64,000 nt of DNA from assembly GCA_033581555.1 (NCBI GenBank), contig JAVQSZ010000001.1, forward strand, positions 64,001 to 128,000, given 5' to 3'. The translations under genes were made by a program, and so were the position numbers. This document shows, one piece after another, positions 28,811 through 55,026 of the stretch. The DNA comes from Nitrososphaerota archaeon (lineage in GTDB: Archaea > Thermoproteota > Nitrososphaeria_A > Caldarchaeales > Calditenuaceae). Positions within the stretch are counted from its first letter, which is position 1. Each line of letters begins with the position of its first letter. The notes beneath the pieces are model-generated. The model did not search any database and was not told where the DNA came from. It worked only from the letters and a program-made list of their open reading frames with translations.

Positions 28811-29515
28811 GTGAACGCCTCCGAGTTGGAGTTAGGCGACGTTTTCAGGACCGCGGTTCCACCCCTGTTGTCAGCTATGTTAGTCCTAGGAGTTGTCGTT
28901 CTGTTCCCCGGGCTGATCCCCGGGACCTACAAGGTCACGACCGCGACCGTTCCAGTCCCCGTCTTCACGACACGGTTCGTTAACGTCACGACGACCCTGA
29001 CCACCGCCTACCTCGTCGACTCCCGGGGACCTGTTTGGGAGCCAGTGTTCGTGGACCTCTCGGAAAGGCCCACCGAGGGGACGATCACCGTCCTTAACAG
29101 GACGCTGACCAAGGAGAAGCCAGCGCTCGCAATAGTCTTCATAGCCGCGGCGCCCCGAGGTTACGAGTTCGCGAGCACGGTGAACGGCTTCGTCTACAGG
29201 CTCGAGGCTAAAGTCGCGAACAGGGTCACGGCGCTCGTCGCGGAGGCGTCACCTCCAGTCATCCCAGGGCTCAGCCGCGAGAACTTCAGGGACCTGCTGA
29301 CGGAGAGGGCGTTCTCACCGGTTAACGTCCTGCCGTTCCAGAACCCGAGGAGGACCGAAGTCTCACCGGGGCCCTTCACACTCCAGAGGGAGCGTGGAGC
29401 CTACGTGCCGTATCCGTGGCTCGCGATCTGGCCGATCTCGGTTCACCTCTACGGCATCGAGAGGGACGTCCACGTGACGGTCACGCTCTCCTACAGCCTG
29501 GTCGGGGCGAAGTGA
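28811..29515 (+). CDS. Membrane-anchored hypothetical protein with a Thr-rich linker; first gene of the E1 operon
   Basis: N-terminal TM followed by a TTxTT-rich stretch; stop overlaps the E1 GTG start (GTGA). Confidence 0.75.
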   Translation: MNASELELGDVFRTAVPPLLSAMLVLGVVVLFPGLIPGTYKVTTATVPVPVFTTRFVNVTTTLTTAYLVDSRGPVWEPVFVDLSERPTEGTITVLNRTLTKEKPALAIVFIAAAPRGYEFASTVNGFVYRLEAKVANRVTALVAEASPPVIPGLSRENFRDLLTERAFSPVNVLPFQNPRRTEVSPGPFTLQRERGAYVPYPWLAIWPISVHLYGIERDVHVTVTLSYSLVGAK

Positions 29516-30354
29516 GGCAGGAGCTCGCGCGGCGGACTCGGGTCTTCGAGATCTTCAGGATGGACGAGGACCGGTATGAGCGGCAGAGGAGGCTCTGGGA
29601 CCAGAGGAGGATATCGTCCCTGAAGGTCCTAGTGGGAGGTGCAGGGGCGCTCGGGAACGAGGTCGTGAAGAACCTGGTCCAGATCGGCGTGAAGAGGGTC
29701 TACGTCGTCGACTTCGACAGGGTCGTCCACTCGAACCTGAACAGGTGCCTCTTCTTCAGGAGAAGCGACGCGACCAAGAGGGCGAAGAAGGTCGATGCGC
29801 TCGCGAGGAGGGCCTCGGACCTCAACCCGGACGTGGAGGTCATTCCGGTCTTCGGGGACATTCGCGACCTCCCGAGCGACGTGATCAAGGACGTCGACAT
29901 GGCCCTTGGGGCCTTCGACAACCTCTTCGCTAGGCTCGTCCTCAACGCGATGTGCTACTCTAACGGTAAGCCCCTAGTTGACGGCGGAATGGAGGGGGTG
30001 CTCGGGACGGTCCAGGTCGTCCTCCCCCCGGAGAGCCCCTGCCTGGAGTGCGGGATGAGTGAGCGGGACCTCGAGCACATGTGGGAGAGGATCTCCTGCA
30101 GCGGCGACGTCGTCGTCGATGACGGTCCGAAGCTGCCCTACATTCCAATGACCGGAGCCCTCGTCGGAGCTCTGCAGGTCATGGAGGCGGTCAAGATAGT
30201 CCTCGGCCTCGAGTCCTACAGGTCTTCCGGGAGGTGGAACGAGTCGGTCGGAGCACCCCTCGTCGGCAAGTCCCTCTTCATCGACCTCAGGTCCAACCTG
30301 AGCTACGCCTACGACCTCCACAAGAGGAGCGACTGCAACGTCTGCGCCCCCTGA
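29512..30354 (+). CDS. Ubiquitin-activating E1-like enzyme (ThiF/UBA superfamily, UBA2/UBA3-like motifs)
   Basis: RYERQ, GAGALGNEVVKNL, DFDRVVHSNLNR, DGGMEG...QVVLPPESPCLEC, candidate catalytic Cys in ISCSG, C-terminal CNVC. Confidence 0.92.
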   Translation: MRQELARRTRVFEIFRMDEDRYERQRRLWDQRRISSLKVLVGGAGALGNEVVKNLVQIGVKRVYVVDFDRVVHSNLNRCLFFRRSDATKRAKKVDALARRASDLNPDVEVIPVFGDIRDLPSDVIKDVDMALGAFDNLFARLVLNAMCYSNGKPLVDGGMEGVLGTVQVVLPPESPCLECGMSERDLEHMWERISCSGDVVVDDGPKLPYIPMTGALVGALQVMEAVKIVLGLESYRSSGRWNESVGAPLVGKSLFIDLRSNLSYAYDLHKRSDCNVCAP

Positions 30355-30438
30355 TCGGGCAGTCCTCGCCTCGACCCCTGCCCGTTTCTCTCGCGTTCTG
30401 TGTCAAGATTTTATAGGTGCCACTAATTCACTCCACGC

Positions 30439-30852
30439 GTGGAAAGAACTAGGTCGAGGGCAGGCCTCAGCGAAGCCGTAACGGCCATTCTGCTGGTGGT
30501 GATCGGGATTGCGATGGCGCTCATGATCTGGCAGTTCTTCACACCACGTCCGACTGAGGAGCTGAGAATAGGGCCCGTCGACGTCTCGGGAGGGGTGGTC
30601 GTCTTCACGGCGCAGAACGTCGGGAGCGTAGACGCGGAGATAATCGGAGTCGCGTGCTACACCGCGGGACAGCCTCCGGCGGCCGGAGGAGGGGTGACTC
30701 CCTTGGGCGGCGCGGACACCAAGCTTCAGCAGGGCGAGTCGAGCACCTTCACCGGGAGCTGCGGAGGCGCGGAGCCAGGCAAGCCGATCAACGTGATGGT
30801 CTATACCAAGAACAAGGCCTACGGTCCTTTCACGGTCATCGTCAGGTCGTGA
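30439..30852 (+). CDS. Archaeal type IV pilin (candidate major pilin)
   Basis: Class III signal RSRAG|LSEAVTAILLVVIGIAMALMIW; own TTTTTATA box ~25 nt upstream. Confidence 0.85.
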   Translation: MERTRSRAGLSEAVTAILLVVIGIAMALMIWQFFTPRPTEELRIGPVDVSGGVVVFTAQNVGSVDAEIIGVACYTAGQPPAAGGGVTPLGGADTKLQQGESSTFTGSCGGAEPGKPINVMVYTKNKAYGPFTVIVRS

Positions 30853-30967
30853 CGAGTTCACCTCCTCAACGAGAGTTGATTTTTCGCATTGATAATCGAG
30901 CAAACCCGCGTTCTTCGATTGACGAGAAACACATATATCATGCCGGCACGAAGCAAACTTGATTGAC

Positions 30968-31789
30968 ATGATCGTTACCGTGAACGAGCTGACCACTAAG
31001 CGAAGCGTCAGGTTGGAGGTCGAGCCCGGCCACACGGTGAGGGCGGTCGTCGAGGAGGTGATGAAAGCGCTGAAGGTCCCGCCGCAGACGACGTACAGGC
31101 TGGTACTGGGCGGGAAGGAGATCGGGCCAGAACTCTTCGACAAGACGCTGGGCGAGCTGGGCATATCGGACGGTGCTGTGATGGACCTCGTCCCGAGGCC
31201 CGTCGGCGGATCAACCCTCTTGCCCAAGGAGAAGTTCCTGAAGAGGCTGGAGAGGGAGGAGGAGGACCTGAGGAACGGCGGGTACCCTTTCACCAGACAA
31301 GACGTCTGGAGTCCGATGAACTTCCCGATGGTCTACAGCGCAGGCTACGAGACGGTCAACGTGGCGGTGAGGTACACGGTCTCCTTCAGGGCCAGGGGGT
31401 TCGTCATGACGAAGAGGGGGATCGAGGAGCAGTGGGACCACTTGGCGAGCCTCTACGTCCTCGACTACTACCCCTACATGGATCCAAAGAAGGGTGCACC
31501 GATGAGGATATTCTGGGAGAGCGACATTTTCCACCCTAACATCTGCCCTGGGCCCCGCTTCAACGGAAACGGGCTCGTCTGCTGGAAGATGATCAAGGAA
31601 TGGGGGAAGACCTTCTCGCTCGCGACGCTCGTGAGGGGGCTTCAGCTCCTCGTCGAGAACCCAAACCCCGAAGACCCGCTCAGCAAGATACCGATATGCA
31701 TGCACGCAGCGTCCTTCTTCAAGGAGAACCCGCACCTCACGGGCACCTACAGGCCAGATACCGGAAGCAGGCCCAGAGTGATCGAATAG
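30968..31789 (+). CDS. Ubiquitin-like domain (ends PVGG) fused to a ubiquitin-conjugating E2 (UBC) domain
   Basis: Beta-grasp-like N-terminal 81 aa (TVRAVVEEV...YRLVLGGKEI...KTLGELGISDGAVMDL...GG at 31205-31210), then IFHPNI...LVCW (Cys codon 31580)...W...LVENPNPEDPL. Confidence 0.92.
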   Translation: MIVTVNELTTKRSVRLEVEPGHTVRAVVEEVMKALKVPPQTTYRLVLGGKEIGPELFDKTLGELGISDGAVMDLVPRPVGGSTLLPKEKFLKRLEREEEDLRNGGYPFTRQDVWSPMNFPMVYSAGYETVNVAVRYTVSFRARGFVMTKRGIEEQWDHLASLYVLDYYPYMDPKKGAPMRIFWESDIFHPNICPGPRFNGNGLVCWKMIKEWGKTFSLATLVRGLQLLVENPNPEDPLSKIPICMHAASFFKENPHLTGTYRPDTGSRPRVIE

Positions 31790-31799
31790 GTGCGAGGAC

Positions 31800-32282
31800 T
31801 TGAGGGGAGAGGAGGCGGGCGTCCTCCCCGTCTACGTCGAGCTGGAGGCCCTCGTTAAGGCCGTCAGGCACTGTAGGGAGGGACTGCCTTACGAGGTCAT
31901 CGGTTTCCTGATTGGAGAGCGGCTGAGGTGGAGGGACAAGCTCTACGTCTTAATCACCGACACCGTGAGGGGTAGGTCGGTTCAAACCCGCACCTACGTC
32001 GAGTTCGATCAGGACGCGCTGGCGGAGGTCGCGGGGCTCATCAGGGAGGAACACCCGGACGCTGAGATCGTGGGCTGGTACCACTCTCACCCGGGATACG
32101 GTTGCTTCATGTCCCCTACTGACATTCGCTCCCATACGACCTGTTTCCCCTATCCACATCAGGTCGCGCTCGTCATCGACCCAGTCAGAGGCGAGGCCTC
32201 GTTCTTCAAGGTCGATGGGGAAGGGGATTACCGAACCGTCCCATCTGCGGTGGTGAGGAGGACGCGTGGTCAGGATCGTTGA
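31800..32282 (+). CDS. JAMM/MPN+ metalloprotease (Rpn11/CSN5-like Ubl-processing protease)
   Basis: EVIGFLIG, IVGWYHSHPGYGCFMSPTD, ALVIDPV. Confidence 0.95.
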   Translation: MRGEEAGVLPVYVELEALVKAVRHCREGLPYEVIGFLIGERLRWRDKLYVLITDTVRGRSVQTRTYVEFDQDALAEVAGLIREEHPDAEIVGWYHSHPGYGCFMSPTDIRSHTTCFPYPHQVALVIDPVRGEASFFKVDGEGDYRTVPSAVVRRTRGQDR

Positions 32283-32433
32283 GGTAAGGGAGAGGGACGT
32301 CAGGGAGGCTCCGCCCCCCGTTGACGGGGAATACGAGCTGATAGCTGTCGACTGGGAAGGCGTCGGTTACGATCTCTCGGACCTTTTGAGCCAGTTGGAA
32401 GATGAAGCGAGCAGGGCTCGGACGGAAGACTAG
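32266..32433 (+). CDS. 55-aa acidic small protein overlapping the JAMM 3' end (below ORF-track cutoff)
   Basis: Manual translation MVRIVEVRERDVREAPPPVDGEYELIAVDWEGVGYDLSDLLSQLEDEASRARTED*; GAGGAGG upstream; fills the gap to the convergent gene. Confidence 0.65.
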   Translation: MVRIVEVRERDVREAPPPVDGEYELIAVDWEGVGYDLSDLLSQLEDEASRARTED

Positions 32434-32437
32434 GCGG

Positions 32438-33217
32438 TCAGGGTCCACGTCCTTCCGTGCCTCTTCGCGATATGCCCATGACGGCGGCCTTCGACTCGTT
32501 CAGGGCCTTCGCTAGAAGGCGCTCCTTCGGGCCGAGCCTCGTCCCCAGCGCGCTAAGGGCGAAGTCGATCTCGGAGGTGACCAACCTCGCGACCTCCTCG
32601 ATAAGTGGTTCAAGGGCACTCGAGCCCGACTCGTACTCCCTAAGGAGGACAGCCAAGTCGTCGCCGATGTAGAGGGCCCTGTAGATCGACCGATCAAGCC
32701 TCTTGTAGAGTTTCCTGGAGATCCTGATGAGCCGCAGCTCCCAGAGGGCGAGGTCCAGCAGCGCCCGAGCCTCCCTCTCCCTGCCGAGGGACTTCAGTAT
32801 TCCGAGCGACGCTACTGCGCCGATGAACGCCCTGTAGAGTTTGCCAGCCTCAGCGACCGTGAGGGGGATCAGCTTGGTGTTGAGCATGAAAGCGATCTGC
32901 GCCTCGTCCTTCAACGTGAGGACACTCTTCGCCTCCTCGCCGATGGCCTTGGCTAGGTCCTCCTTGCTCTGCTGGTCTGCCAACAGCGATGACGACTGTT
33001 CTCTGACGTCCGTCCACGACTTGCTCACGGCCAGCATCTTATCGAGGAGCGCCCCTATCGAGGACTCCCCAATCAACGGCGCCTCGGAGACGTAAAGTAC
33101 AGTTGGAGGCGGTAGAACGTATTGATTCACCTTTAGGACCTTGGGTCTGCTTCTCTTCAGCGACTCAGTTCGCCCCCGAAAGAAGAGAGAGCCCGACCGA
33201 TGTCCGCCACGACTCAT
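32438..33217 (-). CDS. Hypothetical helical protein co-transcribed with two pilin-like genes
   Basis: 259-aa ORF; ATGA overlap with the 33214-33672 gene. Confidence 0.75.
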   Translation of the reverse strand: MSRGGHRSGSLFFRGRTESLKRSRPKVLKVNQYVLPPPTVLYVSEAPLIGESSIGALLDKMLAVSKSWTDVREQSSSLLADQQSKEDLAKAIGEEAKSVLTLKDEAQIAFMLNTKLIPLTVAEAGKLYRAFIGAVASLGILKSLGREREARALLDLALWELRLIRISRKLYKRLDRSIYRALYIGDDLAVLLREYESGSSALEPLIEEVARLVTSEIDFALSALGTRLGPKERLLAKALNESKAAVMGISRRGTEGRGP

Positions 33218-33672
33218 CCCCTGCTCACCGCTAGGATCCCGACCCTATCAGCGGAACAGGTAAGCCTCGCGGTCCACGCGGAGAACGACCTGGTCGGGTC
33301 ATAAGTTCCCCAGACGACCGAGAAGAGCCTGTGGCCTATCACGACGGTACCGTCGGAGTTCCTGACCAGCTTGATGACCGTGAAGTTCACTGAGACGCTC
33401 GGCGGTGCAACTGACGCGATGATGGCGAGGGCCTCGTCGACGGGGATGCCGTCCTCCCGGCATACTAGGGCCTCCATCTGACCGCGCTCCGTCAGGGCCG
33501 CGACCATTTTGTTAGCGAGCTCCTCGAGGTCATTCCTCTGCTCAGAGACCGAGACGGTCTTCATGGAGACGATCTGATAGAAGAGGACAATCCCTATGAC
33601 AATGATGATTGAGGCCAGGATCGCCTCAACGGTCCAAACCATCCCGAGACGCCTGGAGCTCGACGTCCTCAT
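33214..33672 (-). CDS. Minor pilin-like protein
   Basis: RRLG|MVWTVEAILASIIIVIGIVLFY class III-like signal; ATG 33672 overlaps the upstream stop. Confidence 0.75.
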   Translation of the reverse strand: MRTSSSRRLGMVWTVEAILASIIIVIGIVLFYQIVSMKTVSVSEQRNDLEELANKMVAALTERGQMEALVCREDGIPVDEALAIIASVAPPSVSVNFTVIKLVRNSDGTVVIGHRLFSVVWGTYDPTRSFSAWTARLTCSADRVGILAVSRG

Positions 33673-34409
33673 GACACACCACCCGACCAAGCCCAGACCT
33701 CCACGCTCAGGGTCACCCCGTTCTCTGATACGGTCGTCTCCGAAAGGTAAACCGCATCGGGCGGTATCGAGACCCTGGACGGCTCGACAAAGCGGCCCTT
33801 CACGAACGCCACCACTAATTCGGGGTATACAGCCGGCACGACGTGATAAGAAGACTCCGTGAAGACCACCACGGGCGACTCGAAGATAATCGGTGCGATC
33901 TCGTAACCGGACTCGACTACCGTTGACCCACCGTAATAGCAGAGGCTTGCGCTTCCAGAGACCCGTGTAGTTCCGTCTTCCCCGTAATTCACGAGGCGGG
34001 GATCGAGCCGCAGGCCCCTCACGAGGACGCCGTACTGCGTCACTACGATCGTACCCCCGCCTCCTGTCGCGCAGGTCGTGTAATCGGACGGGAACGAGAG
34101 GGCGACAGCAGGGCCCGATTGCACTATCCTCTGCGTGAACGAGACCCTTGCGACGAAGTCGACCCTGATTCCCCTGAAGTCGTAGGAAGGCGCTCCCACG
34201 TAGGCGGGGTTCAGGAAGAAGGCGTCCCTCGAGGACCTGGAGACGAGCGATTTGATGAGGTTAAGGGCCGCCCTCGACTCGACGCGGACCATCGCGTCCT
34301 CAGTGAAGGAGAGGTAGCTCGATGCTCCGGAGAGCGCGGAGAAGACTACTAGACCAGCGACTAGCGCGAAGAGCGAGACCCCGATTGCCGCGTCAACCAC
34401 CGCCTCCAT
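33669..34409 (-). CDS. Pilin-like protein with an N-terminal hydrophobic helix
   Basis: MEAVVDAAIGVSLFALVAGLVVF then a beta-rich domain; no basic leader. Confidence 0.6.
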   Translation of the reverse strand: MEAVVDAAIGVSLFALVAGLVVFSALSGASSYLSFTEDAMVRVESRAALNLIKSLVSRSSRDAFFLNPAYVGAPSYDFRGIRVDFVARVSFTQRIVQSGPAVALSFPSDYTTCATGGGGTIVVTQYGVLVRGLRLDPRLVNYGEDGTTRVSGSASLCYYGGSTVVESGYEIAPIIFESPVVVFTESSYHVVPAVYPELVVAFVKGRFVEPSRVSIPPDAVYLSETTVSENGVTLSVEVWAWSGGVS

Positions 34410-34488
34410 TCTCGGTATATATCGGTCACCAACAGATAAGCATAATGCTGACTAGGGAAGGCAGATCTGTGAGAACGATTTATTACGT

Positions 34489-34815
34489 ATGAGCGCGGGG
34501 AGCGGCGGATTGGAGGACCTGCTCAAGAGGCTGAGGCTGGAGATCGTCGGCGACTTCAGGCAGTACCTGAACGCGCTTGAGCAGACCGGGGACGGCTCCT
34601 GGGAGGTGGCACTGACCGAGAAGGCAGAGGCCTTCGCGGGAACGATGGAGTGTCCGGTCGATAGGGAGGAGGTGCGGATCGAGGAGAGCGTGCTGTGCCC
34701 CATCTGTTACACGCCATATCACGTGGACTGTGCCAAGATCCTCGCCAGCAGGTCGGAGAAGTGCTGGAAGTGCGAGCGGTTCGACAGGTTCGACCTCCTT
34801 CTGAGGGGCAGGTGA
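34489..34815 (+). CDS. Small RING-type zinc finger protein (Prok-RING-like, putative E3)
   Basis: CPVD...CPICYTPYHVDC...CWKC, with Asp at the second ligand position. Confidence 0.8.
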   Translation: MSAGSGGLEDLLKRLRLEIVGDFRQYLNALEQTGDGSWEVALTEKAEAFAGTMECPVDREEVRIEESVLCPICYTPYHVDCAKILASRSEKCWKCERFDRFDLLLRGR

Positions 34816-34821
34816 CGCAAA

Positions 34822-36709: not shown

Positions 36710-36766
36710 CAGCCGTGCCGAATAAAAGCCGTTCGTGGGACATTAGGGGTGAGGGAACCTCTCACG

Positions 36767-38290: not shown

Positions 38291-39021
38291 TCCCTCACCC
38301 GGGAGACCGTCCTCAAGAAGGCCTCTTCCAGCGACGCCGAAGAGTCGAGCCCCGCAGACCGCTTGAGCTCTTCGAGGCTCCCTGAGGCCAAATCTTTTCC
38401 ACGGTGGACGATCGTCGCCGAGTTGCAGACCCTCTCTATCGTGTCGAGGAGGTGCGTGCTGACCAGTACCGATCCCCCGCGCTTCGATATCTCCTTCATC
38501 TCCGCCTTAGCGACGCTCTGGACTTCGGGGTCGAGACCGTTAAAGGGCTCGTCGAGGACGAGGATGAGTGGGTCGTTGACGATCGCCGACGCGAACGCGA
38601 CCCGCTGCTTCAGGCCCTTCGAGAGGCCGAAGATCAGTTTGTCGAGGAGACCGTTCAACCCGAAGAGCTCCGCGACCTCCGAAACGCTGGTCTGCAACTC
38701 CCTCCCCCCGAGGCCCTTTAGCCTCGCGACGAAGACGAGGAACTCCCTCACGGTCAGGTACTCCGGTAGCGACGGGTTCTCGGGGAGGTACCCAATCAGG
38801 GACTTGTAGGAGACGTCCTCTGTGGCCGAGCGGCCCGCCACTCTGACATGGCCGCGGTCGGGCCTGAGCAGCCCCACGACGCACTTGACGGTCGTGGTCT
38901 TGCCCGCGCCGTTCAGCCCCAGGAGGCCGTGCACGCTCCCCGCCCTCACGGTGAGGTTGAGGCCCCGAACTGCTGGCTCTCCGTCGAAGCTCTTCCAGAG
39001 GTCCTTGACCTCGATCATCAT
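38287..39021 (-). CDS. ABC transporter ATP-binding protein
   Basis: GLNGAGKTT, LSKGLKQR, LVLDEPF, VSTH. Confidence 0.95.
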   Translation of the reverse strand: MMIEVKDLWKSFDGEPAVRGLNLTVRAGSVHGLLGLNGAGKTTTVKCVVGLLRPDRGHVRVAGRSATEDVSYKSLIGYLPENPSLPEYLTVREFLVFVARLKGLGGRELQTSVSEVAELFGLNGLLDKLIFGLSKGLKQRVAFASAIVNDPLILVLDEPFNGLDPEVQSVAKAEMKEISKRGGSVLVSTHLLDTIERVCNSATIVHRGKDLASGSLEELKRSAGLDSSASLEEAFLRTVSRVRE

Positions 39022-40965: not shown

Positions 40966-40968
40966 CCC

Positions 40969-47600: not shown

Positions 47601-49088
47601 CTGCTCGAGGGCGTCAGGGGGTTCCTAACCGGTCTTAAGGACGCGATCACTGGGTTCCTCGACAACATCGTCAATCAGATACGGAACTTCGTGAACCTGA
47701 TCAAGCAGACCATCACCTCCCTCGTTAACCAGCTCGTCTCCGCGATCAGCGGTCTGATCTCCTCCGTGGTCGGGGCCCTCCTCGGACCGATAATGAACAT
47801 GGTGAGCCAGCTCTTCAGAGGGTTCGGGTTGCTCGGCGACATCCTCGCAGGCGTAATCAGGGACATGATAACGAACTTCGTGAACGAGTTGATCAGCGGG
47901 TTCGTCCAGGAGATCCTCAACGGTCTGATGCAACCAGTGAACCAGCTCATCAACGGGCTCGACCAGCTGGTGAACCGAATACTCGAACCCATCAACAGGA
48001 TCAAGGAGGCGTTAACGAGATGGCACGACCAGATCGTCTCGACCATCGACCGGTGGTTGGGCGACATCCTCAACCCATTGAACAACGTCCTCTCGGTCGC
48101 CAAATCGGACCTCGCCAACGGTCAGATCAGCGGCCTCGTGACCGCCGCGTTGAGGGAGTTCCTGAGCGGCATGACGCGCCCCGTGAGGGAATCGGTCGAG
48201 GAGGCCGTCAGGAAGCTCAACGAGGCCGAGAGGAAGATACTGGGCTCGCTGATCAGGATCAGGGACTCCATGATCCACCTGAACAACATGCTGAGAGTCC
48301 CTATCATAGGCAGGGGAGGAGTGCTTCAGGCAACCATCGCGGACCTCGGTGAGAGCGCCGCTTCAGACGACTACGGCCGGCTCGGTTCCATCACGATCGA
48401 CACGAGACCCCTGAAGCTGATGCCGGGGTGGTACCACCAGTACGAGATGGTCCTTCACCCCGTCGGCGGTGGCCCATCAGCACCAATTCCGGCCGACTTC
48501 ACCCTACTCTTTGGACCTCTGGAGGAGATCAGGGAGCTCTTCGATGCTCCTCCGCCGAGCGTCGTCCCGGTTAAGGTCAATGAGATCGGCCCGGCGCTGA
48601 GGGGTTGGAGCGTTGACGTCGTGATATTGGGCGACCCGAAGAGGCCGGTGGTCCCGGGAGCATCGGCTACCGCGAGGCTCTTCGTCGTTAAGTCCGACGG
48701 CACCGTTGAGGTGAAGGGACTCGGAGACCTCACCGGGACTCTCATCGCACCGTTCTGTCCGTTCCCGATCGAGAACAACCCACTTCTGGCACCGTTCTGC
48801 CCGTGGCCGATAGAGCAGGGCCCGATGATCGCTCCCTTCGTCCCGTTCCCGATAGAGCGGGAGACGCTGATCGCTCCCTTCGCGCCGTGGCCGATCGAGG
48901 GCGGCCCGTTGCTCTCGCCCTTCGCCCCGTGGCCGATCGAGTACTCGGTCGGAGTCCTGGAGACGCCCTATAACGACCCATCTGCCAGGGCCGTCCCCAG
49001 GATACTGGTACCAGCGGACACGATGACCGGCCCGGTGTTGATCTCGCCCTTCGTCCCGTTCCCGATCGAGCAGACCGCACGGGGGTGA
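44616..49088 (+). CDS. 1490-aa secreted/membrane protein with an internal TM pair, a long amphipathic helical region and C-terminal PFxP[FW]PIE repeats
   Basis: Sec signal (..VSA|E), Pro/Thr linker, TM segments; overlaps the upstream pilin stop and ends 4 bp before the next pilin gene. Confidence 0.85.
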   Translation: MNSLRLGPALTLLVLLLVPSVSAENSPLPPGEPEDLAIAVAPSGHLMVSYIVAYPMSSLAAAADAIRDTTEGSAVLLLNVRRMASNGTAFLEVAGQPSEARVNSIVRAFASATGLRFETSGSTGQFIATVTWGDVVRTVEALKPATVGGFSPNLRREFLERFEEVTVVVSVSKMRWGVTTSLEVRLLRQLQFPSGAREHVIDVLRELGVSDLRPARGAMLNVILMPPFGAQKFNYEVTPRSISLRPIAEGVDAHFAMLNGSSVITSLRFGFTYAFGSGALRDLPTDFLTFVERIERAAALVNRTSTPLPAPTTPPGQRPVPSDEGTEEAPETETPDAGTVERAPAGGPMEALRRVLPPIEGAGRTIQIDPLHLLVIVVSAASFLAFASLYVRGRGPSKKGAASLVVVLLITLSLVLPIMAISAVRAERASGGLESILEVEQFHPGGAPSDLEIPLLFPGFKRIDKVSKTFISFEEINVVATPGLHSPYVPQGFEKLLATLGMDLRLIQMAGLIFGGGLNPLGMFKGMTVAHGATSVFLVNEDVGANVFVTFKAKPSGTLKSLLNVINTVYRIGYALYHSTICFPGDGCLHPIGWGMMVASSLAAVALALIAPGFMVYALASYPVVVNNELYATFSFKDGKFAEDEERLWLAEERYMVSLAILIMILRAPTLSGWRGAEGLTDIPLTASFHVTSDADSGWRLTDFLGIYSGDRGLKVTVDFKDALGIFGLFESLFGLFQGAWSSLASHVAGSLSEQESVLRQIAFELRSLVRVNALLDSPVSKLDRAVTLLADARLKLGARNCQGAQQNVDGARASIRSAIQDLQPLVSDSGLGHLIRHYINELEKVEASLSEYTEQLDGLCAPYNFSAEPPTDPESIPDERKLTLTFIVLSATPMVTEAVHYKTSSTLSLRAYWGWNPLPGIAYGLERTVREIFRVARLTAYNALDRLDEAVDFIASEVAGELTRPLNALVGGLIGGPLGDLSGALSQILGPIRSLLEGVRGFLTGLKDAITGFLDNIVNQIRNFVNLIKQTITSLVNQLVSAISGLISSVVGALLGPIMNMVSQLFRGFGLLGDILAGVIRDMITNFVNELISGFVQEILNGLMQPVNQLINGLDQLVNRILEPINRIKEALTRWHDQIVSTIDRWLGDILNPLNNVLSVAKSDLANGQISGLVTAALREFLSGMTRPVRESVEEAVRKLNEAERKILGSLIRIRDSMIHLNNMLRVPIIGRGGVLQATIADLGESAASDDYGRLGSITIDTRPLKLMPGWYHQYEMVLHPVGGGPSAPIPADFTLLFGPLEEIRELFDAPPPSVVPVKVNEIGPALRGWSVDVVILGDPKRPVVPGASATARLFVVKSDGTVEVKGLGDLTGTLIAPFCPFPIENNPLLAPFCPWPIEQGPMIAPFVPFPIERETLIAPFAPWPIEGGPLLSPFAPWPIEYSVGVLETPYNDPSARAVPRILVPADTMTGPVLISPFVPFPIEQTARG
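48741..49070 (+). repeat. 5 tandem 42-bp (14-aa) repeats plus 1 spaced copy of [LM][IL][AS]PF[CVA]P[FW]PIE
   Basis: Read directly: LIAPFCPFPIENNP, LLAPFCPWPIEQGP, MIAPFVPFPIERET, LIAPFAPWPIEGGP, LLSPFAPWPIEYSV ... LISPFVPFPIE. Confidence 0.95.
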
Positions 49089-49092: not shown

Positions 49093-49896
49093 TTGAGGTC
49101 TAGGGCAGGGCTCAGCACCGCGGTTCAGACGGCGGCGCTCATCGCGATCACCGCTGGCCTTGCCGTCGCTGTGGTGGCGCTCTGGAGACCTTGGGAGGCA
49201 TCGGGTCAGGCCCAGTCGGCCGCGGTCGCCGTCAGGGTACAACAGATCCACGACCTCCTACTCAGGAGGGAGGGGGCCGTGGTCCTCGCCCATCCCGTGA
49301 TCGTGCGGCCCTTCGCGGAGGCCCACGTGATCGAGGTCGAGTGGAAAGGGAGGAGCGTGATGATACCCGCGGTGGTCAGTGCGATTGAGTACGTGGCTCC
49401 GAAGCAGAGGATCCCCGGAATATACTACCTTGAGCGCGGAATGGTGGACGTCCTGGGCGATTACATCGCGGGTAAAAGGTTGAACTACACGACTACGGGG
49501 ATAGACGTGGTGACATACGCGGTCTACGAGGAGAATGAGGTCAGGATCGTGACCAAAACGCTCCCCTACATCTCGTACTCAATAGATAGGGTGTACAACG
49601 ACGTCGTGGTGACCGTGATGGTCAGGGTGGTCTTCGTTACCCCGTCCCACGCCGACCCCGAGACCTATGGGAGGGTACTGCAAAACGGATACGTCGCGGC
49701 GCCGGGAGACACGCTGACCTTCAGGCTCAACGCCACCCGGAGGACGTTCTACCAGCTCCCCGAGTCGGTGGACGGCGGATCCCTCAGGGTGCTCGTCGAC
49801 GGCGTCGAGGTCCCCCAGTTCAGGTTCTCTACGAGCGAGAGGGCCATCTTCAGGGTCTTCGTCGACTACGTGACCGTCATGGTCTGGGCGAGGTGA
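49093..49896 (+). CDS. Pilin-like protein
   Basis: RSRAG|LSTAVQTAALIAITAGLAVAVV class III signal, the same RSRAGLS as the 30439 pilin. Confidence 0.8.
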   Translation: MRSRAGLSTAVQTAALIAITAGLAVAVVALWRPWEASGQAQSAAVAVRVQQIHDLLLRREGAVVLAHPVIVRPFAEAHVIEVEWKGRSVMIPAVVSAIEYVAPKQRIPGIYYLERGMVDVLGDYIAGKRLNYTTTGIDVVTYAVYEENEVRIVTKTLPYISYSIDRVYNDVVVTVMVRVVFVTPSHADPETYGRVLQNGYVAAPGDTLTFRLNATRRTFYQLPESVDGGSLRVLVDGVEVPQFRFSTSERAIFRVFVDYVTVMVWAR

Positions 49897-49901: not shown

Positions 49902-50375
49902 GTGACCACCTCGTACACCTACATCGTGACGATCGGCGTGATCATGCTGGTGACGTTCACGACCGCGGCCCTCTTCCTCCAACAGGTGAACTCAGTGGAC
50001 TACGCGGCCAAGAGGTCCGCCCTCTCGGTGGCCGCGTCCCACGTGCTCTCCGGGATCTGGAGCGCGGTCGAGGAGGTGAAGCTGACCCAATCGGGAAGGG
50101 AGTTCAAGTCCGTCTCGGTCGGTTTCCCCTTCAGGGCTGAGATAGGGTCCAGTCCTAGGACCGGAGATCTGGTGGTGTGCGTGACCGCTATGGGGATAAC
50201 CTATGAGAGGCCCTTACCCGTGATACAGGGAGTCCAATACGTCCCCTCGGCCTCCGGAGGGGACCGGGTCGGAGTGCTGGTCGAGATGTCGGGAGGGAGG
50301 GCCTCGGTCAGGCTGGTCAACGTCGGTAATGACGGAAACCTGATCTCTGACAACCCCGGCCTCTGCCTGAGATGA
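49902..50375 (+). CDS. Pilin-like protein
   Basis: N-terminal hydrophobic helix YIVTIGVIMLVTFTTAALF followed by an amphipathic helix and beta strands; lies in the pilus operon. Confidence 0.65.
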   Translation: MTTSYTYIVTIGVIMLVTFTTAALFLQQVNSVDYAAKRSALSVAASHVLSGIWSAVEEVKLTQSGREFKSVSVGFPFRAEIGSSPRTGDLVVCVTAMGITYERPLPVIQGVQYVPSASGGDRVGVLVEMSGGRASVRLVNVGNDGNLISDNPGLCLR

Positions 50376-51850
50376 GCCTCAAGGGCCTCGCAGTGGTCGC
50401 GCTCCTGACGGCCGTCCTCCTCCTCCAGTCAGCCGGTGCAGCGGAGACTGCGGTCCGCGAGGCCCCGACCGTCGTCAAGGCTAGGTTGGCAGTTGACGCA
50501 TCGTGCTCCGGTGTTATGACCTACGTGGTAGACGCGGAGGAGGCCAAGAGGGCTGGGCTCTGGAGGCTCTGGCTCCTCCTGCCCAAGGAGCCACTGAGGT
50601 GGAGCGTGGAGCCGCACGCGGTCCACGAGGTCTCCGATCTACCGGAGGGATCAGAGGGCAGAAGGGTCTACAGCAACGTGACCTTCGACCTCAGCTCAAT
50701 CGAGGGCCTCCTGACGGTCTCCTTCAGGATGGACCACGCGTGCCTCGTGAACGGGGACCGGGGCCTATTACTGACGCCGCTGGTCTCTTACGGACCGCCG
50801 ATCAGGGGCGAGCTAGAGATCACCTTAGAGGGCCTCGTGGAGGGGGTTAGGTCCGTCGAGCCGTGGTCGCCTCACGTAGAGGTCCACAACCGGTCGCTCT
50901 CCGTTCGCCGCGAGCTTCCCCTCACCGTCAACAGGGTCGCGATCGACTTCAGGCCCGTGGAAGAGCCCTTCTACCTCGTCTCTTCAAGGGGGTTCAGCGT
51001 CAAGACCCATCAACGCTACGCGCAGGTCGCCGCAGCGGTCATCGACGCCCTAGCGAACGCCAGCGACTACCTGAAGGCCGTCTTCGGCGAAGACGTCCCG
51101 GATGTGACGGTGGAGTTCTTCCTGCCCCGAGACTACCGGTCCGGCCCCGAGGGCTTCGCCCCCGTCCCGTCGGGCGGCTCGAGGGTTATCGGGCTCAACT
51201 TGATCCTCCTCAGGAGGCCGCAGGGGTACTTGGAGGTGATCGCGGTCCACGAGCTAGTCCACCATTACCTCTTCGAGGTCGGCGTAGGTGCGGGCGCGAC
51301 TTGGTTCCACGAAGGCCTCGCGGTCTACTTCTCCCTCGAGCTGGGGGAGCGGCTGAGGCTGGAGGGCGCGCGGGTGATGAGGGAGCTGATCATGCAAGAG
51401 GCGTCCCGTTCGAGGCAGATCAGGCTGAGCGAGTGGAAGCCCGGTGAGTCCAGAGACAGCGACTGGTACGCGACCGCCTTCGCTCTGATCGAGGGGCTCT
51501 TCAGGCTCGACCCCGCAGGCATGTCTAAGGCCCTCCTCAGCCTGAGAGACGAGAGGAGATGGATATCATCGGGAGAGGCTGCGGCCGAGTACCTCGCGAA
51601 GCACCTCAACGAAGAGGCGTTAGGGCTGCTTAGGGAGGCCGGACTTCTCCCAAAGGTGAGTAGGCACTCAGACGACGGATCGACGGCTTCGGCCACGACG
51701 GTCACTGAGACGCGCGGAGATGCTACAACCGACTCCGACAATCACGACCGAAGCGGGACGATTGCGATTGACGAGGAGCTCCTTCTAATAAGCCTGGCGA
51801 CCGCCGCTATCGTGGTCTCGCTCCTCGCGATCAGGGACGCAAAGTCCTAA
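50372..51850 (+). CDS. Surface-anchored gluzincin-type zinc metallopeptidase
   Basis: Signal peptide, HELVH...WFHEGLA, Thr-rich linker, C-terminal TM. Confidence 0.88.
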   Translation: MSLKGLAVVALLTAVLLLQSAGAAETAVREAPTVVKARLAVDASCSGVMTYVVDAEEAKRAGLWRLWLLLPKEPLRWSVEPHAVHEVSDLPEGSEGRRVYSNVTFDLSSIEGLLTVSFRMDHACLVNGDRGLLLTPLVSYGPPIRGELEITLEGLVEGVRSVEPWSPHVEVHNRSLSVRRELPLTVNRVAIDFRPVEEPFYLVSSRGFSVKTHQRYAQVAAAVIDALANASDYLKAVFGEDVPDVTVEFFLPRDYRSGPEGFAPVPSGGSRVIGLNLILLRRPQGYLEVIAVHELVHHYLFEVGVGAGATWFHEGLAVYFSLELGERLRLEGARVMRELIMQEASRSRQIRLSEWKPGESRDSDWYATAFALIEGLFRLDPAGMSKALLSLRDERRWISSGEAAAEYLAKHLNEEALGLLREAGLLPKVSRHSDDGSTASATTVTETRGDATTDSDNHDRSGTIAIDEELLLISLATAAIVVSLLAIRDAKS

Positions 51851-51875: not shown

Positions 51876-52700
51876 TCAGCTCGACGAACTCTCCACTTGA
51901 TACCCTAGCTCGAGCAGCCTGTTCACGTACTCGTTCTTGAGCTTGTTGTAGACCTGCTCGTTGATCTTCCCGGTCCTGTAGTTCTCCTCGAGGACCCTGA
52001 GGAAGTTCAGGTACCTGACCACCTCAGCCGGGAGCTGTTGGGGTTGTCCGGTCGGGGGCTCGCCGGCAGGCACGATCATCGGCCTGACCTCGACGGCGGG
52101 TTCGCGCCGCTCAGCGAGATCGGGGGCCTCAGCCTCCCTCCGGGTCGCCTCTTCCGTGACACGCTGAACGCCGATCTCCCATGACGACCGAATGCGGGAC
52201 ACGAGAACGTTCAGTCCCATCTTAGGCTTTGTCAGCAGCAAGTAAACGACGTAGAGCGAGATTGCCCCGCTCCACGCAAGCAGACCCAAGAGGGCCGCCG
52301 TCGCGGCACCCAGGGCAATCAACCCGAACGGGTGCGGGACGACTCCATAGACTACCGAGGGGACTGCAGCGATCACGGCCAGCCTGATCAAGTTGTCCCT
52401 CTTCAGAGGTATGTTCACGAGCCCCCTAGTGGCGAGGAAGAGGGCCACTGCCAGGACGATTACCAACCCGGCAACCCCGGACGCTAACTGAGCGACCGCG
52501 ACGAGGAAGAGAGAGAAGACGAGATAGATGATGAGGACGTCCACTCCCTTAACCATCGAGACGAAAGCCGCCAAAACCCCGATGATGATCAGCGTGAGGA
52601 TCAGACTCAGGACGCCGCCCGTGGCATAAGCGGCTGAGGTCAACAGGGCTATGAACGTCGCAACGAAAATGTCCCGCCTCAGGAATTGCTTGAGTTTCAA
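51876..52700 (-). CDS. Multi-TM membrane protein with a C-terminal SHOCT/CdvA-like motif
   Basis: About 6 TMs, then LEENYRTGKINEQVYNKLKNEY. Confidence 0.75.
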   Translation of the reverse strand: MKLKQFLRRDIFVATFIALLTSAAYATGGVLSLILTLIIIGVLAAFVSMVKGVDVLIIYLVFSLFLVAVAQLASGVAGLVIVLAVALFLATRGLVNIPLKRDNLIRLAVIAAVPSVVYGVVPHPFGLIALGAATAALLGLLAWSGAISLYVVYLLLTKPKMGLNVLVSRIRSSWEIGVQRVTEEATRREAEAPDLAERREPAVEVRPMIVPAGEPPTGQPQQLPAEVVRYLNFLRVLEENYRTGKINEQVYNKLKNEYVNRLLELGYQVESSSS

Positions 52701-52794
52701 AGGTGTTCACAGCGTCGAGCGCGGGGGACCTAATTAAACATTAGGAGAAAACCGGCTAGCAAACTAATAATATGAAGGTTAGGGATATCCAGAT

Positions 52795-55026
52795 GTGAAG
52801 GTGAGGACTTTCTCCCCAATATTCGTGATCGCTTTGGTGGTCTCCAGCTTCGCGGTGATTTGGACGCCGGTGGGGGCTGAACCGTCAAAGGCGCCCATAG
52901 ACCTGCCGATCAAAGCACCGCTGGAGGTCAACGTGATACTCGCGGGGTTCTCAAGTCGGGACCTCGGGGTGACGCCCGCGGAGTTAGAGGGACTACTCTC
53001 GCGCCTCGTCAGGAGCGAGGCCGTCGCCTACGCGGGCTTCTTCATGGAGGATCCCTATGTGGTCGCGCTCTTCGACGTCGAGCTGACGGTGATCGAGGCC
53101 GACGCCAGGCTGAACTCGGAGATACGGGCGCTGTTCGGACGTGTCTCCTATGACCCCGCTGCCTTGCCGATCGACGTGAGGAACAGCTTCGTGAGGTACG
53201 TGTCGTTCGTTAGGGAGTACTATGGAACTACGTTCGCGATCCGGTTGAACGACAGGATGACGGACATCGCAGCGCTCACCCTCGGATTAGTCTCGCTCAC
53301 GAACAGGTTCCTCCCACAGATCACCGACGGATACAACATTTACCTGATTTGCGGACTGCCCTTCACTGGCAATAAGTTTCCCGTATACTTCTCCGCCGGG
53401 CAGACTGTCGAGCGCGGAAACGGCATAGGAGCGGTGGGTATGAACCTGTACGGCGGGATAGGGACATACAGGTACGTCGTCCTCGACATTTGCGCAATCC
53501 CAAACCCATTCGGCAACTTCGCGCCGAAGACGGAAGAGGACGTCGAGAAGTATTTGCCGCCAGCGCTCTACAGGGGCCCGCGAGACCAGATCCAAGCGAT
53601 CGCCATGTACGTCGACGAGATAATAGACAACCTATTCGTTAAGAGTCTCATCTATGTCCCGAGGTATCAGGTGACCTTTCTCTTCGACGTAGTGGTGATA
53701 GACATGACCACGACCGGAGGAGGACTGCAGTTCATAGTCTCAAACTTCATACCTGAGATATTCGAGTCGGCGATGAAGTGGCTGATGCCGTACAACTTCT
53801 ACACGAGCAGGTTTCACTACAGGACTATTGCGGAGGCCGCGGTGATGAGGCAAGCCATCTCCGTCCATAGGGGCATTCAGATAATCGACGTCGAGAGGGC
53901 CTTCACGCTTGCCGAGAGGACGGGGCTGATCCCCCCGGCACCGTCTGGAGTAACGAGGATACCGGTGTTGATCTTCCTCTCCGACGCCGACATCTACCCG
54001 AGCTCGCCTGGAACGATAGGGATAGCGTGGCCCGACCTTAGCGACCCGAGGTACCCGAGGGGTGCAGTCGTGGGGTTGAATTACAGGTTCGTCGAGAGGG
54101 AAGGGCTGACCTTGGTCACGATTCACGAGGCCGCCCACACCCTCGGGCTGGCCCATCCACACGACGACCTCGACGAGACTGATCAAGAGGTCATTCGACC
54201 GGGCAAGTCGAAGCCGCAGGTCAAGACGAGATGGGTCTTCAGCTGGGCAGAGACCGCGATGTCCTACGCAGACGTCCCCCAGGTCGTCAATCAGAGGGTG
54301 ATCTACCCGGGAGCGTATCCGTTGAGGACCTACTTCAGCGCCTTCGACCTCGACGCGATCGACAGGGCGGTCGTGACGCTGCTGCTCGGGTACTACCTGA
54401 ACTACAGGGAGGAAGTCATGAAGAAGCTGAAGGAGTCGGGTCTCCGACTGGAGGACATACCTGAGGCCGAGAAGCTCCTGAGGGAGGCCGACAAAGCGGC
54501 TGTTAACGCGGTCAGCCTGTTCAGGGACCACAACTACTTCGACAGGTTTGGGTTCGCGGGACTCGGAGCCCAACTTGAAACGGCCTTCGACTACGCGTGG
54601 AAGGCCTTGACCGACGTCATCGAGCTCTACGACAATGTGGAGGGCGCGAGGCAAGCGATCGAGTCTACTCGGCCGTTGATTAGGAAGCTCGAGAGCGAAA
54701 TCAGTGATCTGAGGTCGACGGTCGAGAGTCTGAAGGGGAGGCTCGATGCTGCCACCGCCCGTGCCGAACAGTTGCAGAGGTCCCTGAGCCAAGAGGCGCA
54801 GGAGAGGCAGAGGATCCAACAGGAGCTGGAATTAACGAAGAGCGACCTCACCAGGGCGAGGACGGAGCTTGAGCTGACCAAGAACAACCTCTCAGCCGCG
54901 AGGTCCGAGGTCAATACCTACCTCATGCTCGCAGCAGCGGGAATGGTGGCGGCAGCCGGATCGGCCGCTTTCGCGATAGCGAGCAGGCGCGGATCAAGGC
55001 CACGCGTCCTAACCTCGTCCACCTAG
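52795..55026 (+). CDS. Surface-anchored metzincin-type metalloprotease with a coiled-coil stalk
   Basis: Signal peptide, HEAAHTLGLAHPHD, TAMSY Met-turn, heptad stalk, C-terminal TM. Confidence 0.88.
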   Translation: MKVRTFSPIFVIALVVSSFAVIWTPVGAEPSKAPIDLPIKAPLEVNVILAGFSSRDLGVTPAELEGLLSRLVRSEAVAYAGFFMEDPYVVALFDVELTVIEADARLNSEIRALFGRVSYDPAALPIDVRNSFVRYVSFVREYYGTTFAIRLNDRMTDIAALTLGLVSLTNRFLPQITDGYNIYLICGLPFTGNKFPVYFSAGQTVERGNGIGAVGMNLYGGIGTYRYVVLDICAIPNPFGNFAPKTEEDVEKYLPPALYRGPRDQIQAIAMYVDEIIDNLFVKSLIYVPRYQVTFLFDVVVIDMTTTGGGLQFIVSNFIPEIFESAMKWLMPYNFYTSRFHYRTIAEAAVMRQAISVHRGIQIIDVERAFTLAERTGLIPPAPSGVTRIPVLIFLSDADIYPSSPGTIGIAWPDLSDPRYPRGAVVGLNYRFVEREGLTLVTIHEAAHTLGLAHPHDDLDETDQEVIRPGKSKPQVKTRWVFSWAETAMSYADVPQVVNQRVIYPGAYPLRTYFSAFDLDAIDRAVVTLLLGYYLNYREEVMKKLKESGLRLEDIPEAEKLLREADKAAVNAVSLFRDHNYFDRFGFAGLGAQLETAFDYAWKALTDVIELYDNVEGARQAIESTRPLIRKLESEISDLRSTVESLKGRLDAATARAEQLQRSLSQEAQERQRIQQELELTKSDLTRARTELELTKNNLSAARSEVNTYLMLAAAGMVAAAGSAAFAIASRRGSRPRVLTSST

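Follow-up and report, generated by a model that had tools for sequence, protein, structure and literature searches.

The closest described relative of the system reported here is the ubiquitin operon of "Candidatus Caldiarchaeum subterraneum," a compact cluster in an archaeon of the same order. It encodes a ubiquitin-like protein (Ubl) with a Gly-Gly motif that needs trimming, a ThiF-type E1, and a UBC-fold E2 with an HPN motif and a Cys, and the available part of its description adds a small zinc-finger E3 and a JAMM protease that processes as well as deconjugates. According to the same part of that work, the archaeal Rpn11 cuts pro-ubiquitin and a linear ubiquitin-GFP fusion after Gly-Gly, and the biochemistry of the system was reconstituted with stand-in substrates (PMC5654768). 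Members of these families were found at positions 28811 to 55026 of the 64-kb stretch of DNA analyzed here (the window; G000:C1:64001-128000), where open reading frame (ORF) reading and Pfam and NCBIfam scans revealed ubiquitin-type genes interleaved with genes resembling those of archaeal type IV pili. The source assembly, G000 (1.43 Mb, 72 contigs, 90.6% complete), belongs to a genus shared with the genome G001, which we label g1. Unlike in the Caldiarchaeum operon, the ubiquitin genes of the window are scattered between pilus genes, Ubl and E2 form one protein, and the E1 is devoid of a C-terminal Ubl-like domain and an insertion. The E2 groups with Asgard-type E2s, the finger protein has Asp as its second ligand and a dedicated winged-helix/helical partner, and a canonical operon is also present in the genome. 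We consider it highly probable that the locus encodes a complete, but divergent, ubiquitin-type conjugation cascade. The ubiquitin and pilus genes probably represent one functional module, because they stay mixed in five gene orders, their markers share a narrow distribution, and the whole block is differently placed in G001.

Other known systems share single aspects of this arrangement. Eukaryotic ubiquitin-L40, ubiquitin-S27a, and polyubiquitin are head-to-tail fusions that are cleaved after Gly-Gly. The Ubl of the window is likewise part of a fusion precursor, and PDB chains of ubiquitin-ribosomal protein fusions were among its matches, but its partner is the cognate E2, an arrangement that was not found in the literature searched. 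Archaeal type IV pili (Aap, Ups, Bas, and the archaellum) have in common with the locus a FlaI/BasE-like ATPase, an UpsF/BasF-like platform protein, class III-type leaders, and a prepilin peptidase. In contrast to them, the window contains a tape-measure-like 1490-aa protein, two HExxH surface proteins, the protein g259, and a ubiquitin cascade; in a census of archaeal type IV pili (PMC4858521), the word "ubiquitin" occurs 0 times. BilABCD and related operons, as far as the accessible parts of their descriptions go, resemble the window in being self-contained sets of Ubl, E1, E2, and JAB outside housekeeping genes. They differ in that the window E1 is short and without the extra domains described for BilD, the putative E3 is of RING type, and the locus is archaeal and pilus linked, with no defense context seen. 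Asgard ubiquitin-ESCRT clusters, in the part of their description at hand (bioRxiv 10.1101/2023.07.25.550441), also tie a cascade genomically to a membrane-acting machine, and the nearest outside E2s of the window bear Asgard names. In the window, however, this machine is a type IV filament, and no ESCRT or CdvA family match was obtained in the block with Pfam.

The E1 gene (29512 to 30354, plus strand) encodes a ThiF/MoeB-type adenylation domain of ~280 aa (Pfam ThiF, 3.7e-46). Its GTG start is overlapped by 4 nt by the stop codon of the preceding gene, g234, and is therefore plausible. In the E1 alignment, GxGxxG and both CxxC pairs are invariant and the middle Cys is conserved. The protein ends at the second CxxC, without the internal insertion and the C-terminal Ubl-like domain of canonical E1; the canonical E1 of the same genome runs ~100 residues further, and the two share 45% identity over 165 aa. 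In a search for relatives, short ThiF proteins emerged as a broad family spread over many archaea, by which the origin of the cascade is not placed.

The modifier and the E2 are encoded by a single gene (30959 to 31789, plus strand), whose product comprises a Ubl at residues 1 to 84, ending in an invariant PRPVGG, directly followed by a UBC-fold E2 with HPN and Cys208. The E2 part matched Pfam UQ_con above its cutoff (2.2e-7; 31.0 bits versus 27) and solved E2s in PDB with values of up to 4.9e-6. The Ubl part remained slightly below the cutoff for Pfam ubiquitin (6e-5; 23.2 bits versus 25.4), as it did for Rad60-SLD. Residues 9 to 84 aligned with residues 6 to 76 of ubiquitin in PDB chains (E about 4e-4), and in this sequence alignment Gly-Gly 83-84 falls on Gly75-Gly76 of ubiquitin. 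Further PDB matches of the Ubl were an archaeal ubiquitin-like protein (3.6e-5) and NEDD8 (8e-5). G83, G84, HPN, and C208 are invariant in 8/8 fusion proteins, and HPN and C208 in all 13/13 E2 sequences aligned. The fused form is rare: 49 matches were obtained from a set of 5.8 billion proteins, and only 9 protein clusters, all of this clade and at least 61% identical, contained the fusion. The remaining matches were E2-only proteins of 156 to 193 aa, and those carrying names were Asgard. On a 1.1-kb metagenome contig (L040, 92 to 909), the match to Ubl-E2 lies in two frames that meet near 475 to 481, which reflects a frameshift or an assembly error.

The gene for the JAMM/Rpn11-like metalloprotease (31800 to 32282, plus strand; Pfam JAB, 3.8e-14; 52.9 bits versus a cutoff of 22.5) starts 10 nt past Ubl-E2, and the JAMM motif is readable in its translation. 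It lies directly 3' of Ubl-E2 in 17/17 related loci, and no other Ubl gene was found in the block. By analogy with the Caldiarchaeum enzyme, we infer that this protein would process the Ubl-E2 fusion and act as deconjugase.

The fourth component is the product of 34489 to 34815 (plus strand), a putative RING/PHD-like E3 with a 50-aa N-terminal arm. Its cross-brace ligands, C55-x2-D58 ... C70-x2-C73-x4-H78-x2-C81-x10-C92-x2-C95, with D in second place, are conserved in 8 sequences. All Pfam matches were subthreshold, the best being Prok-RING_1 (1.6e-3; 18.8 bits versus a cutoff of 29.1) and PHD_2 (3.1e-3). Matches to PDB sequences were weak and were headed by a C1 domain (6.3e-6), followed by RING-H2 EL5 (0.068) and PHD fingers. 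For the AlphaFold2 (AF2) model, with a predicted score in the local distance difference test (pLDDT) of 62.5, the top fold matches were all RING or U-box; these were weak as well, with none at E<=0.001. The earlier inventory, in which E1, Ubl-E2, JAMM, and RING genes were described as interspersed with pilin genes from the sequence only, was nevertheless right: the first three are recognized by Pfam ThiF, UQ_con, and JAB, and the finger is supported by its ligand pattern.

Six nucleotides past the finger gene lies cc285 (34822 to 35679, plus strand), encoding a winged-helix-like N terminus and a long helical region. The complex of the two proteins was predicted with a score of 0.71, versus 0.00 for the best of 3 controls. 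The mark applied is reached by 58/80 solved complexes and 2/110 mismatched pairs, a calibration that is only rough, since the alignments used here were our own. Runs agreed in at least 73% of contacts with a partner pLDDT of at least 85, and in the predicted interface, residues 6 to 27 of the finger protein, within its N-terminal arm, contact the winged-helix portion of cc285. Such an arrangement, with the RING finger docked on a scaffold of winged-helix type, would somewhat recall Rbx1, which is held on cullin. In two loci of a sister module described below (L042 and L051), a single protein of 351 or 434 aa has a winged-helix start, a long helical middle, and the finger at its end, which argues that the finger and cc285 of the window work together. 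A search of 1.84 billion proteins found no more than 17 representatives of this family of winged-helix/coiled-coil/RING fusions at E<=0.001.

The gene adjoining cc285 in all five gene orders, cc358 (35633 to 36709, minus strand), likewise encodes a winged-helix N terminus and a long helical region. In its Atlas model, which is of low confidence, residues 6 to 74 resemble helix-turn-helix domains; a comparison by features yielded no usable match. Only the N-terminal 60 residues of cc285 and cc358 were aligned by hhalign (E = 0.0056, probability 6.5%), and cc358 matched the L051 fusion protein with an E value of 0.13. These weak alignments do not show a common ancestry of the three proteins. The proposal that coiled-coil proteins of the locus are CdvA-like was not supported, as no CdvA family match was obtained for cc285, cc358, or g259 in Pfam at E<=0.1.

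The pilus-like set consists of the ATPase, the platform protein, ~7 pilin-like proteins, the 1490-aa membrane protein, and 2 HExxH surface proteins. Its core is an eight-gene run on the plus strand with gaps of -4 to +5 nt: T2SSE, T2SSF, g480, g182, giant1490, pil267, g157, and g492. The filament assembly ATPase (39163 to 40965) matched T2SSE (3.7e-22, 78.9 bits) and, after a gap of 3 nt, the platform protein (40969 to 42630) matched T2SSF (3.7e-7, 30.6 bits), both above the Pfam cutoffs. Together with an ABC_tran match, these assignments bear out the pilus ATPase, TadC, and ABC exporter named in the sequence-only reading. The best NCBIfam models for the ATPase were BasE (1e-66; 225.7 versus a cutoff of 1000) and FlaI (6e-63; 213.4 versus 550), and those for the platform protein were UpsF (74.9 versus 400) and BasF (67.5 versus 1300). 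Because no NCBIfam model reached its cutoff, the pilus system is placed in no named subtype (Bas, Ups, or archaellum). The C-terminal tail of the ATPase (window 40600 to 40965, residues about 480 to 600) is Lys rich, contains a conserved ..VGxGDLxLKPP.. motif, and is clade specific; homologues of other genera have a different, winged-helix-looking C terminus in its place. A prepilin peptidase (Peptidase_A24) is encoded at G000:C1:145089-145415, ~17 kb past the window end, and was the only such match in the assembly.

Each pilin-like protein has one N-terminal hydrophobic helix, and leaders ending in G or GQ before this helix are conserved across orthologues; their class III type was judged by motif only. 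The small pilin-like protein pil137 (30439 to 30852, plus strand) carries the leader RSRAG|LS, and pil267 (49093 to 49896, plus strand) carries MRSRAG|LS, so that pilins of both halves of the block share this leader, as had been read from the sequence. Of 22 genes, pil137 shows the highest identity in G001 (83%), and its product, the best conserved of the cluster, is likely the major pilus subunit. The minus-strand pair pil158 (33214 to 33690; leader ..RRLG|M, hydrophobic helix 23-41) and pil246 (33669 to 34409; N-terminal hydrophobic helix, no leader in the window) always occurs together across loci; pil158 matched DUF7288 below the cutoff (2.6e-5). In the main run, g182 (44071 to 44619) has a ..SGQ|A leader, and g157 (49902 to 50375) has an N-terminal helix and no leader. 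The large pilin-like protein g480 (42632 to 44074; ..KKGQ|V leader) stands out by a GC content at third codon positions (GC3) of 0.63, versus 0.76 to 0.89 in its neighbors, and by only 23 to 31% identity among orthologues whose neighbors are 70 to 78% identical. A fast-evolving tip or adhesin subunit would fit this pattern.

To follow the linkage across relatives, 17 related loci with Ubl-E2 proteins at least 70% identical were compared, 4 of them from genomes and 13 from metagenome contigs. Ubiquitin and pilus genes, which had been expected to be linked in a neighborhood survey, occur together in 16/17 loci, the exception being the 1.1-kb contig, and the ATPase is present in 13/17. Five gene orders were distinguished (brackets denote the opposite strand). 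Order A is the arrangement of the window, found there and in 3 loci, and the only order with the ABC transporter. In order B (6 loci, including G001), the genes run (pil158 pil246) RING cc285 (cc358) UblE2 JAMM (g259) T2SSE ... g492 (g274) g234 E1 g743 pil137, which in G001 places the E1 16 kb from Ubl-E2, beyond the pilus operon, and g743 between E1 and pil137. Order C (4 loci) reads pil137 UblE2 JAMM (g259) T2SSE ...; order D (1 locus) reads UblE2 JAMM (g259) RING cc285 (cc358) (g274) pil246 pil158 (E1 g234); and order E (2 loci) reads g274 cc358 (cc285 RING pil137) UblE2 JAMM (g259) T2SSE .... The units g234-E1, UblE2-JAMM-g259, RING-cc285-cc358, pil158-pil246, and T2SSE through the giant gene are unbroken in all orders. 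They are thus rearranged between orders, yet kept in one block. In the window, the block is flanked by housekeeping genes, with a metallo-beta-lactamase-fold protein on one side and a uracil-DNA glycosylase on the other. The flanks of the block in G001 have nothing in common with those in the window: none of the G001-flank ORFs of at least 110 aa matches the window, and no integrase was noticed in their first 70 residues, with no family search made.

The markers of the block were then surveyed in 61 genomes of the order. The full Ubl-E2 fusion was found in 5/61 genomes, an orthologue of the ATPase in 6/61 (identity of 77% or more, the next best match having 45%), the giant protein in 4/61, and pil137 in 5/61 plus one weak match, all of genus g1. 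The module is present in 6/7 genomes of the genus. The remaining one, G003, which is 84% complete, contains none of Ubl-E2, ATPase orthologue, giant protein, and pil137. No giant-protein match was obtained in G004 and G006, and neither fusion nor pil137 in G005, but these assemblies are 66 to 77% complete, with contigs ending inside the locus, and so are uninformative. As a control, the canonical ubiquitin operon was located relative to T2SSE-type ATPases by manual table reading, the counts being limited by fragmented assemblies. It lies within 5 kb of such an ATPase in 1/60 relatives and at 15 to 24 kb in six genomes (five relatives and G000).

The genome of the window also holds a canonical operon on contig C7 (L024, 9171 to 11127), composed of genes for a 78-aa ubiquitin with Gly-Gly at its end, a 182-aa E2, and a 406-aa E1, with an Rpn11-type JAB ~19 kb upstream at C7:2139-2456. 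In total, G000 contains 3 JAB and 3 ThiF genes, and the canonical pair was found in all 60 relatives of the order. The window E2 and the resident canonical E2 share only ~24% identity. A quick tree of 40 E2 domains (16 canonical Caldarchaeales, 8 fusion, 2 sister, and 14 Asgard-like), calculated by maximum likelihood, split the canonical Caldarchaeales E2s from the fusion, sister, and Asgard-like E2s with an SH-like approximate likelihood ratio test (SH-aLRT) support of 100 and a branch length of 3.48. Fusion and sister sequences grouped with a support of 93; the sister pair lies inside the fusion clade on a long branch, and its placement is unsure. Because the tree groups the pilus-linked E2 with Asgard-type E2s apart from the canonical ones, and the E1 architecture differs, the pilus-linked cascade is a second cascade and no recent copy of the resident one. 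The likeness to the Caldarchaeum operon drawn in the sequence-only reading therefore holds for the gene families; the counterpart of that operon resides elsewhere in the genome, and the pilus-linked cascade is divergent.

The sister module was found at L051 (G240:C8, 391 to 10826), in another family of the same phylum, and at L042 (G005:C91). Its short E1, E2, and JAMM are 36 to 39%, 33 to 36%, and 37 to 41% identical to the window proteins, respectively. It further contains a secreted/membrane protein, a separate Ubl with Gly-Gly and a tail, a Thr-rich membrane protein, small membrane/coiled-coil proteins, and the winged-helix/coiled-coil/RING fusion. L042 is AT rich with ambiguous bases and looks like a foreign contig in the G005 bin. 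Like the window cascade, the sister module adjoins genes of a cell-surface apparatus and is accompanied by membrane proteins.

Several observations weigh against coupling of the cascade to the pilus. All of the linkage comes from one genus, and since the loci are kin, several of them near-copies, the five orders do not count as independent tests. The single locus of order D (L037, 11.8 kb) shows no ATPase. The leader of pil137 is without a conserved Lys, and the RING assignment of the finger lies below every curated cutoff. No pilus gene is present on the 6.8-kb (L042) or 12.5-kb (L051) contig of the sister module, and the neighbors of L051 are a vWA-dockerin protein with a membrane-anchored cohesin protein and a DDE transposase. 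Since the sister cascade is homologous and no pilus gene was seen on its contigs, such a cascade can apparently exist without a pilus system, and the ubiquitin-pilus coupling may be specific to this genus. In addition, ubiquitin-type conjugation is cytoplasmic, but the pilins in their mature form, the giant protein, and both HExxH proteins are extracellular. Target, expression, and activity are all putative at this stage. The earlier notion of one ubiquitin-pilus system is thus strengthened by the five mixed orders, the shared narrow distribution, and the relocated block, and weakened by the restriction to one genus and by the sister module without pilus genes.

The explanation that competes best with a single module is that two independent systems are co-resident in a variable, relocatable island, the second cascade serving, e.g., membrane or surface protein quality control, and the mixing of genes being internal shuffling at a rearrangement hot spot. 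We regard this as rather unlikely, but it accounts for a good part of the data. In its favor, the sister ubiquitin module has cohesin/dockerin and vWA surface proteins as neighbors and no pilus genes, and the island context differs between G000 and G001. GC3 in the island is slightly lower than in the flanks (0.63 to 0.89 versus 0.84 to 0.92), an unrelated ABC transporter is also mixed in (order A), and the data all stem from one genus. Independent modules, however, should drift apart, and the 55 relatives without the fusion are also without ATPase orthologue, giant protein, and close pil137, except for the incomplete G005. In order B, the ubiquitin genes are kept although the pilus operon divides them. 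Spacing in the window speaks in the same direction: E1 and pil137 are separated by 84 nt and pil137 and Ubl-E2 by 106 nt, all on the same strand, and short same-strand gaps and overlaps join ubiquitin-side and pilin genes elsewhere, the minus-strand genes pil246, pil158, and g259 being mutually overlapping (g259/pil158 by 4 nt). Finally, no integrase or tRNA was found at the island borders in the window.

A Bil-like antiviral function, in which proteins of pilus-entering viruses would be tagged or the pilus removed under attack, is improbable. In the accessible part of the Bil study, a Ubl is conjugated to a virion protein, and the Bil JAB pre-processes the Ubl, exposing its Gly (bioRxiv 10.1101/2023.09.26.559546). 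The narrow, patchy distribution, the relocating block, and the fast evolution of g480 would also suit defense. The link to Bil drawn in the sequence-only reading was not upheld by PADLOC, which yielded only generic matches: the E1 aligned solely with the adenylation part of E1-E2 models (best, 1.1e-14), JAB was weak (1.4e-5), the E2 matched 0 families, and there was none for the finger, g259, cc285, or cc358. Pfam scans detected no other defense genes in the block, the E2 and Ubl are of eukaryote/Asgard type, and presence in 6/7 genomes of the genus is unlike a sporadic defense island. That the Ubl is never released, so that the E2 has a built-in, nonconjugatable docking Ubl and the JAMM another substrate, is very improbable: cleavage is inferred and the linker from Gly84 to the first E2 helix measures only ~3 residues, but Gly-Gly is invariant exactly at the ubiquitin end, the separate Ubl of the sister systems, with its tail, also needs trimming, JAMM always adjoins Ubl-E2, and E1 and E2 would otherwise have no modifier in the block to transfer.

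A provirus was considered as a further origin. The helical region of giant1490 (residues ~920 to 1215, window 47370 to 48260) matches phage tape-measure families in PHROGs (best, 1.7e-11), a match that may be compositional, over a helical low-complexity region. This reading was rejected, as the other nine of the 10 island proteins tested match no PHROG; the remaining genes were not scanned, and no search specific for capsid, portal, or terminase was made. The gene itself (44616 to 49088, plus strand) encodes a secreted/membrane protein with a signal peptide and hydrophobic helices near residues 366 to 421 and 602 to 620, and its C terminus (residues about 1378 to 1485, window 48747 to 49070) carries six [AS]PFxP[FW]PIE repeats.

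The single-module reading can be extended to a working scheme. In it, JAMM would cut after Gly84 and release the mature Ubl and the E2, and the short E1 would activate the Ubl and hand it over to Cys208 of the E2. The E3 would be the finger protein, bound to cc285 and probably also to cc358, and would act at the membrane beside g234 and g274. Candidate targets would be the platform protein, g259, prepilins not yet assembled, or the ATPase, whose tail is rich in Lys; tagging would set the assembly, activity, or turnover of these proteins, and JAMM would reverse the modification. Cleavage, activation, and the E3 step are modeled on the family biochemistry of the Caldiarchaeum system, and the choice of targets follows from linkage only. 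Because conjugation is cytoplasmic, the locus offers few possible substrates, limited to the ATPase, g259, the components of the E3, prepilins before assembly, and, of the membrane proteins, the loops of the platform protein and the cytoplasmic tail of g274. The evidence appears evenly balanced for the proposal in full, that the block without the ABC transporter is one co-inherited, genus-specific module of ~24 kb whose cascade tags cytoplasmic or membrane parts of the pilus machine. Taken separately, the step from gene linkage alone to pilus parts as substrates is tentative and somewhat doubtful. The more specific version is a dedicated, membrane-proximal ubiquitin ligase machine, made up of a processed Ubl-E2 precursor, an E1 without the UFD-type domain, and a RING finger on a winged-helix scaffold, that would modify a type IV filament system at its motor, its platform, or its subunits before assembly; this version is possible but on present evidence unlikely.

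Of the conserved genes of the block, g234, g259, g274, and the pair cc285/cc358 were not in the initial inventory. The membrane protein g234 (28811 to 29515, plus strand) has a short N terminus, a hydrophobic helix at residues 18 to 36, and then a Thr-rich stretch. In all loci with E1, g234 is the gene immediately upstream, and its product gave no Pfam, NCBIfam, PADLOC, or PHROG match. A relationship to the Thr-rich membrane protein of L042 was rejected for want of similarity (E 1.1), the likeness being one of architecture only. The predicted cytoplasmic protein g259 (32438 to 33217, minus strand) is all-helical in its AF2 model (pLDDT 71), with a conserved but disordered N-terminal motif, and its gene lies 3' of JAMM wherever the locus extends far enough. 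Its relatives form only 7 clusters, all of this clade, and its model matched no PDB fold at E<=0.001 (best, 14-3-3; 0.12, TM 0.21). The polytopic membrane protein g274 (51876 to 52700, minus strand) has a cytoplasmic C-terminal helical motif and adjoins cc358 in orders D and E.

Two proteins had been called surface proteases, and this label rests on HExxH motifs only, as no Pfam match was obtained for either g492 or g743. The former (50372 to 51850, plus strand) is a secreted, C-terminally anchored, putative metalloprotease with a HELVHH motif alone; the latter (52795 to 55026, plus strand) is secreted and C-terminally anchored, with a metzincin-like HExxHxxGxxH and a coiled coil. The ABC transporter on the minus strand (36767 to 39021; permease 36767 to 38290, ATPase 38287 to 39021; Pfam ABC_tran, 3.1e-28) is probably a neighbor outside the system, since it occurs only in order A and also beside an unrelated T2SSE/T2SSF pair in genus g3. 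At the latter locus (L043; G008:C1, 10783 to 16758), the orthologous ATPase and permease are 70% and 52% identical, respectively. The ABC-pilus adjacency thus seems to be older than the ubiquitin-linked module, or recurrent.

With regard to the reads, runs X8 and X9, whose RNA label is a guess, yielded 3 and 6 short contigs at a depth of 2 to 4. They lie over g259, pil246 and the beginning of the RING gene, the ABC genes, the giant gene, and the boundary between T2SSE and T2SSF; nothing about expression or otherwise was drawn from them. A joint from 31265 to 42011 in run X5 has only 24 letters on its shorter side and was discarded as too short to trust.

A second arrangement of this kind was encountered in another family of the same order. 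At L059 (G046:C79, 7367 to 16373), an archaellum operon with archaellin, a FlaH-like gene, FlaI, FlaJ, and a 145-aa ORF is followed on the same strand by canonical pro-ubiquitin, E2, and E1. L059 is a second, independent case of a ubiquitin operon beside a type IV filament system, and by the manual table reading such an arrangement exists in only 1/60 relatives. A search of the literature on ubiquitin together with pili, the archaellum, Calditenuis, Aigarchaeota, or Caldarchaeales revealed no such link; supplements, which possibly list a third operon class, were outside this search. In the accessible parts of the Calditenuis papers, the ubiquitin system is mentioned as background only and pili are treated separately. 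The available part of an Aigarchaeota survey reports a ubiquitin modifier system in all six genomes analyzed and there mentions no second cascade. A pilus system of "Candidatus Calditenuis aerorheumensis," which may be another than that of the window, is reported to be very highly transcribed in situ (PMC4681859).

For the evolution of E1-E2-E3 systems, the locus adds a new anatomy: a Ubl-E2 precursor, an E1 without a Ubl-like domain, a putative E3 composed of finger plus scaffold, and an E2 closest to those of Asgard archaea. The in-cell targets of archaeal ubiquitin cascades are an open question, and linkage to one machine narrows the candidates to a handful of cytoplasmic and membrane proteins. 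If the proposal is true, protein tagging would join the known ways of regulating type IV filaments, and the locus would be the first in which a ubiquitin-type system controls a surface or secretion nanomachine of a prokaryote, with extraction similar to endoplasmic reticulum-associated degradation and proteasomal turnover possibly included. It would also offer a natural archaeal ubiquitin cascade with a small, genomically defined substrate set. In that case, the sister module, with its cohesin and dockerin neighbors, would suggest that "surface-apparatus" ubiquitin systems form a broader class among archaea.

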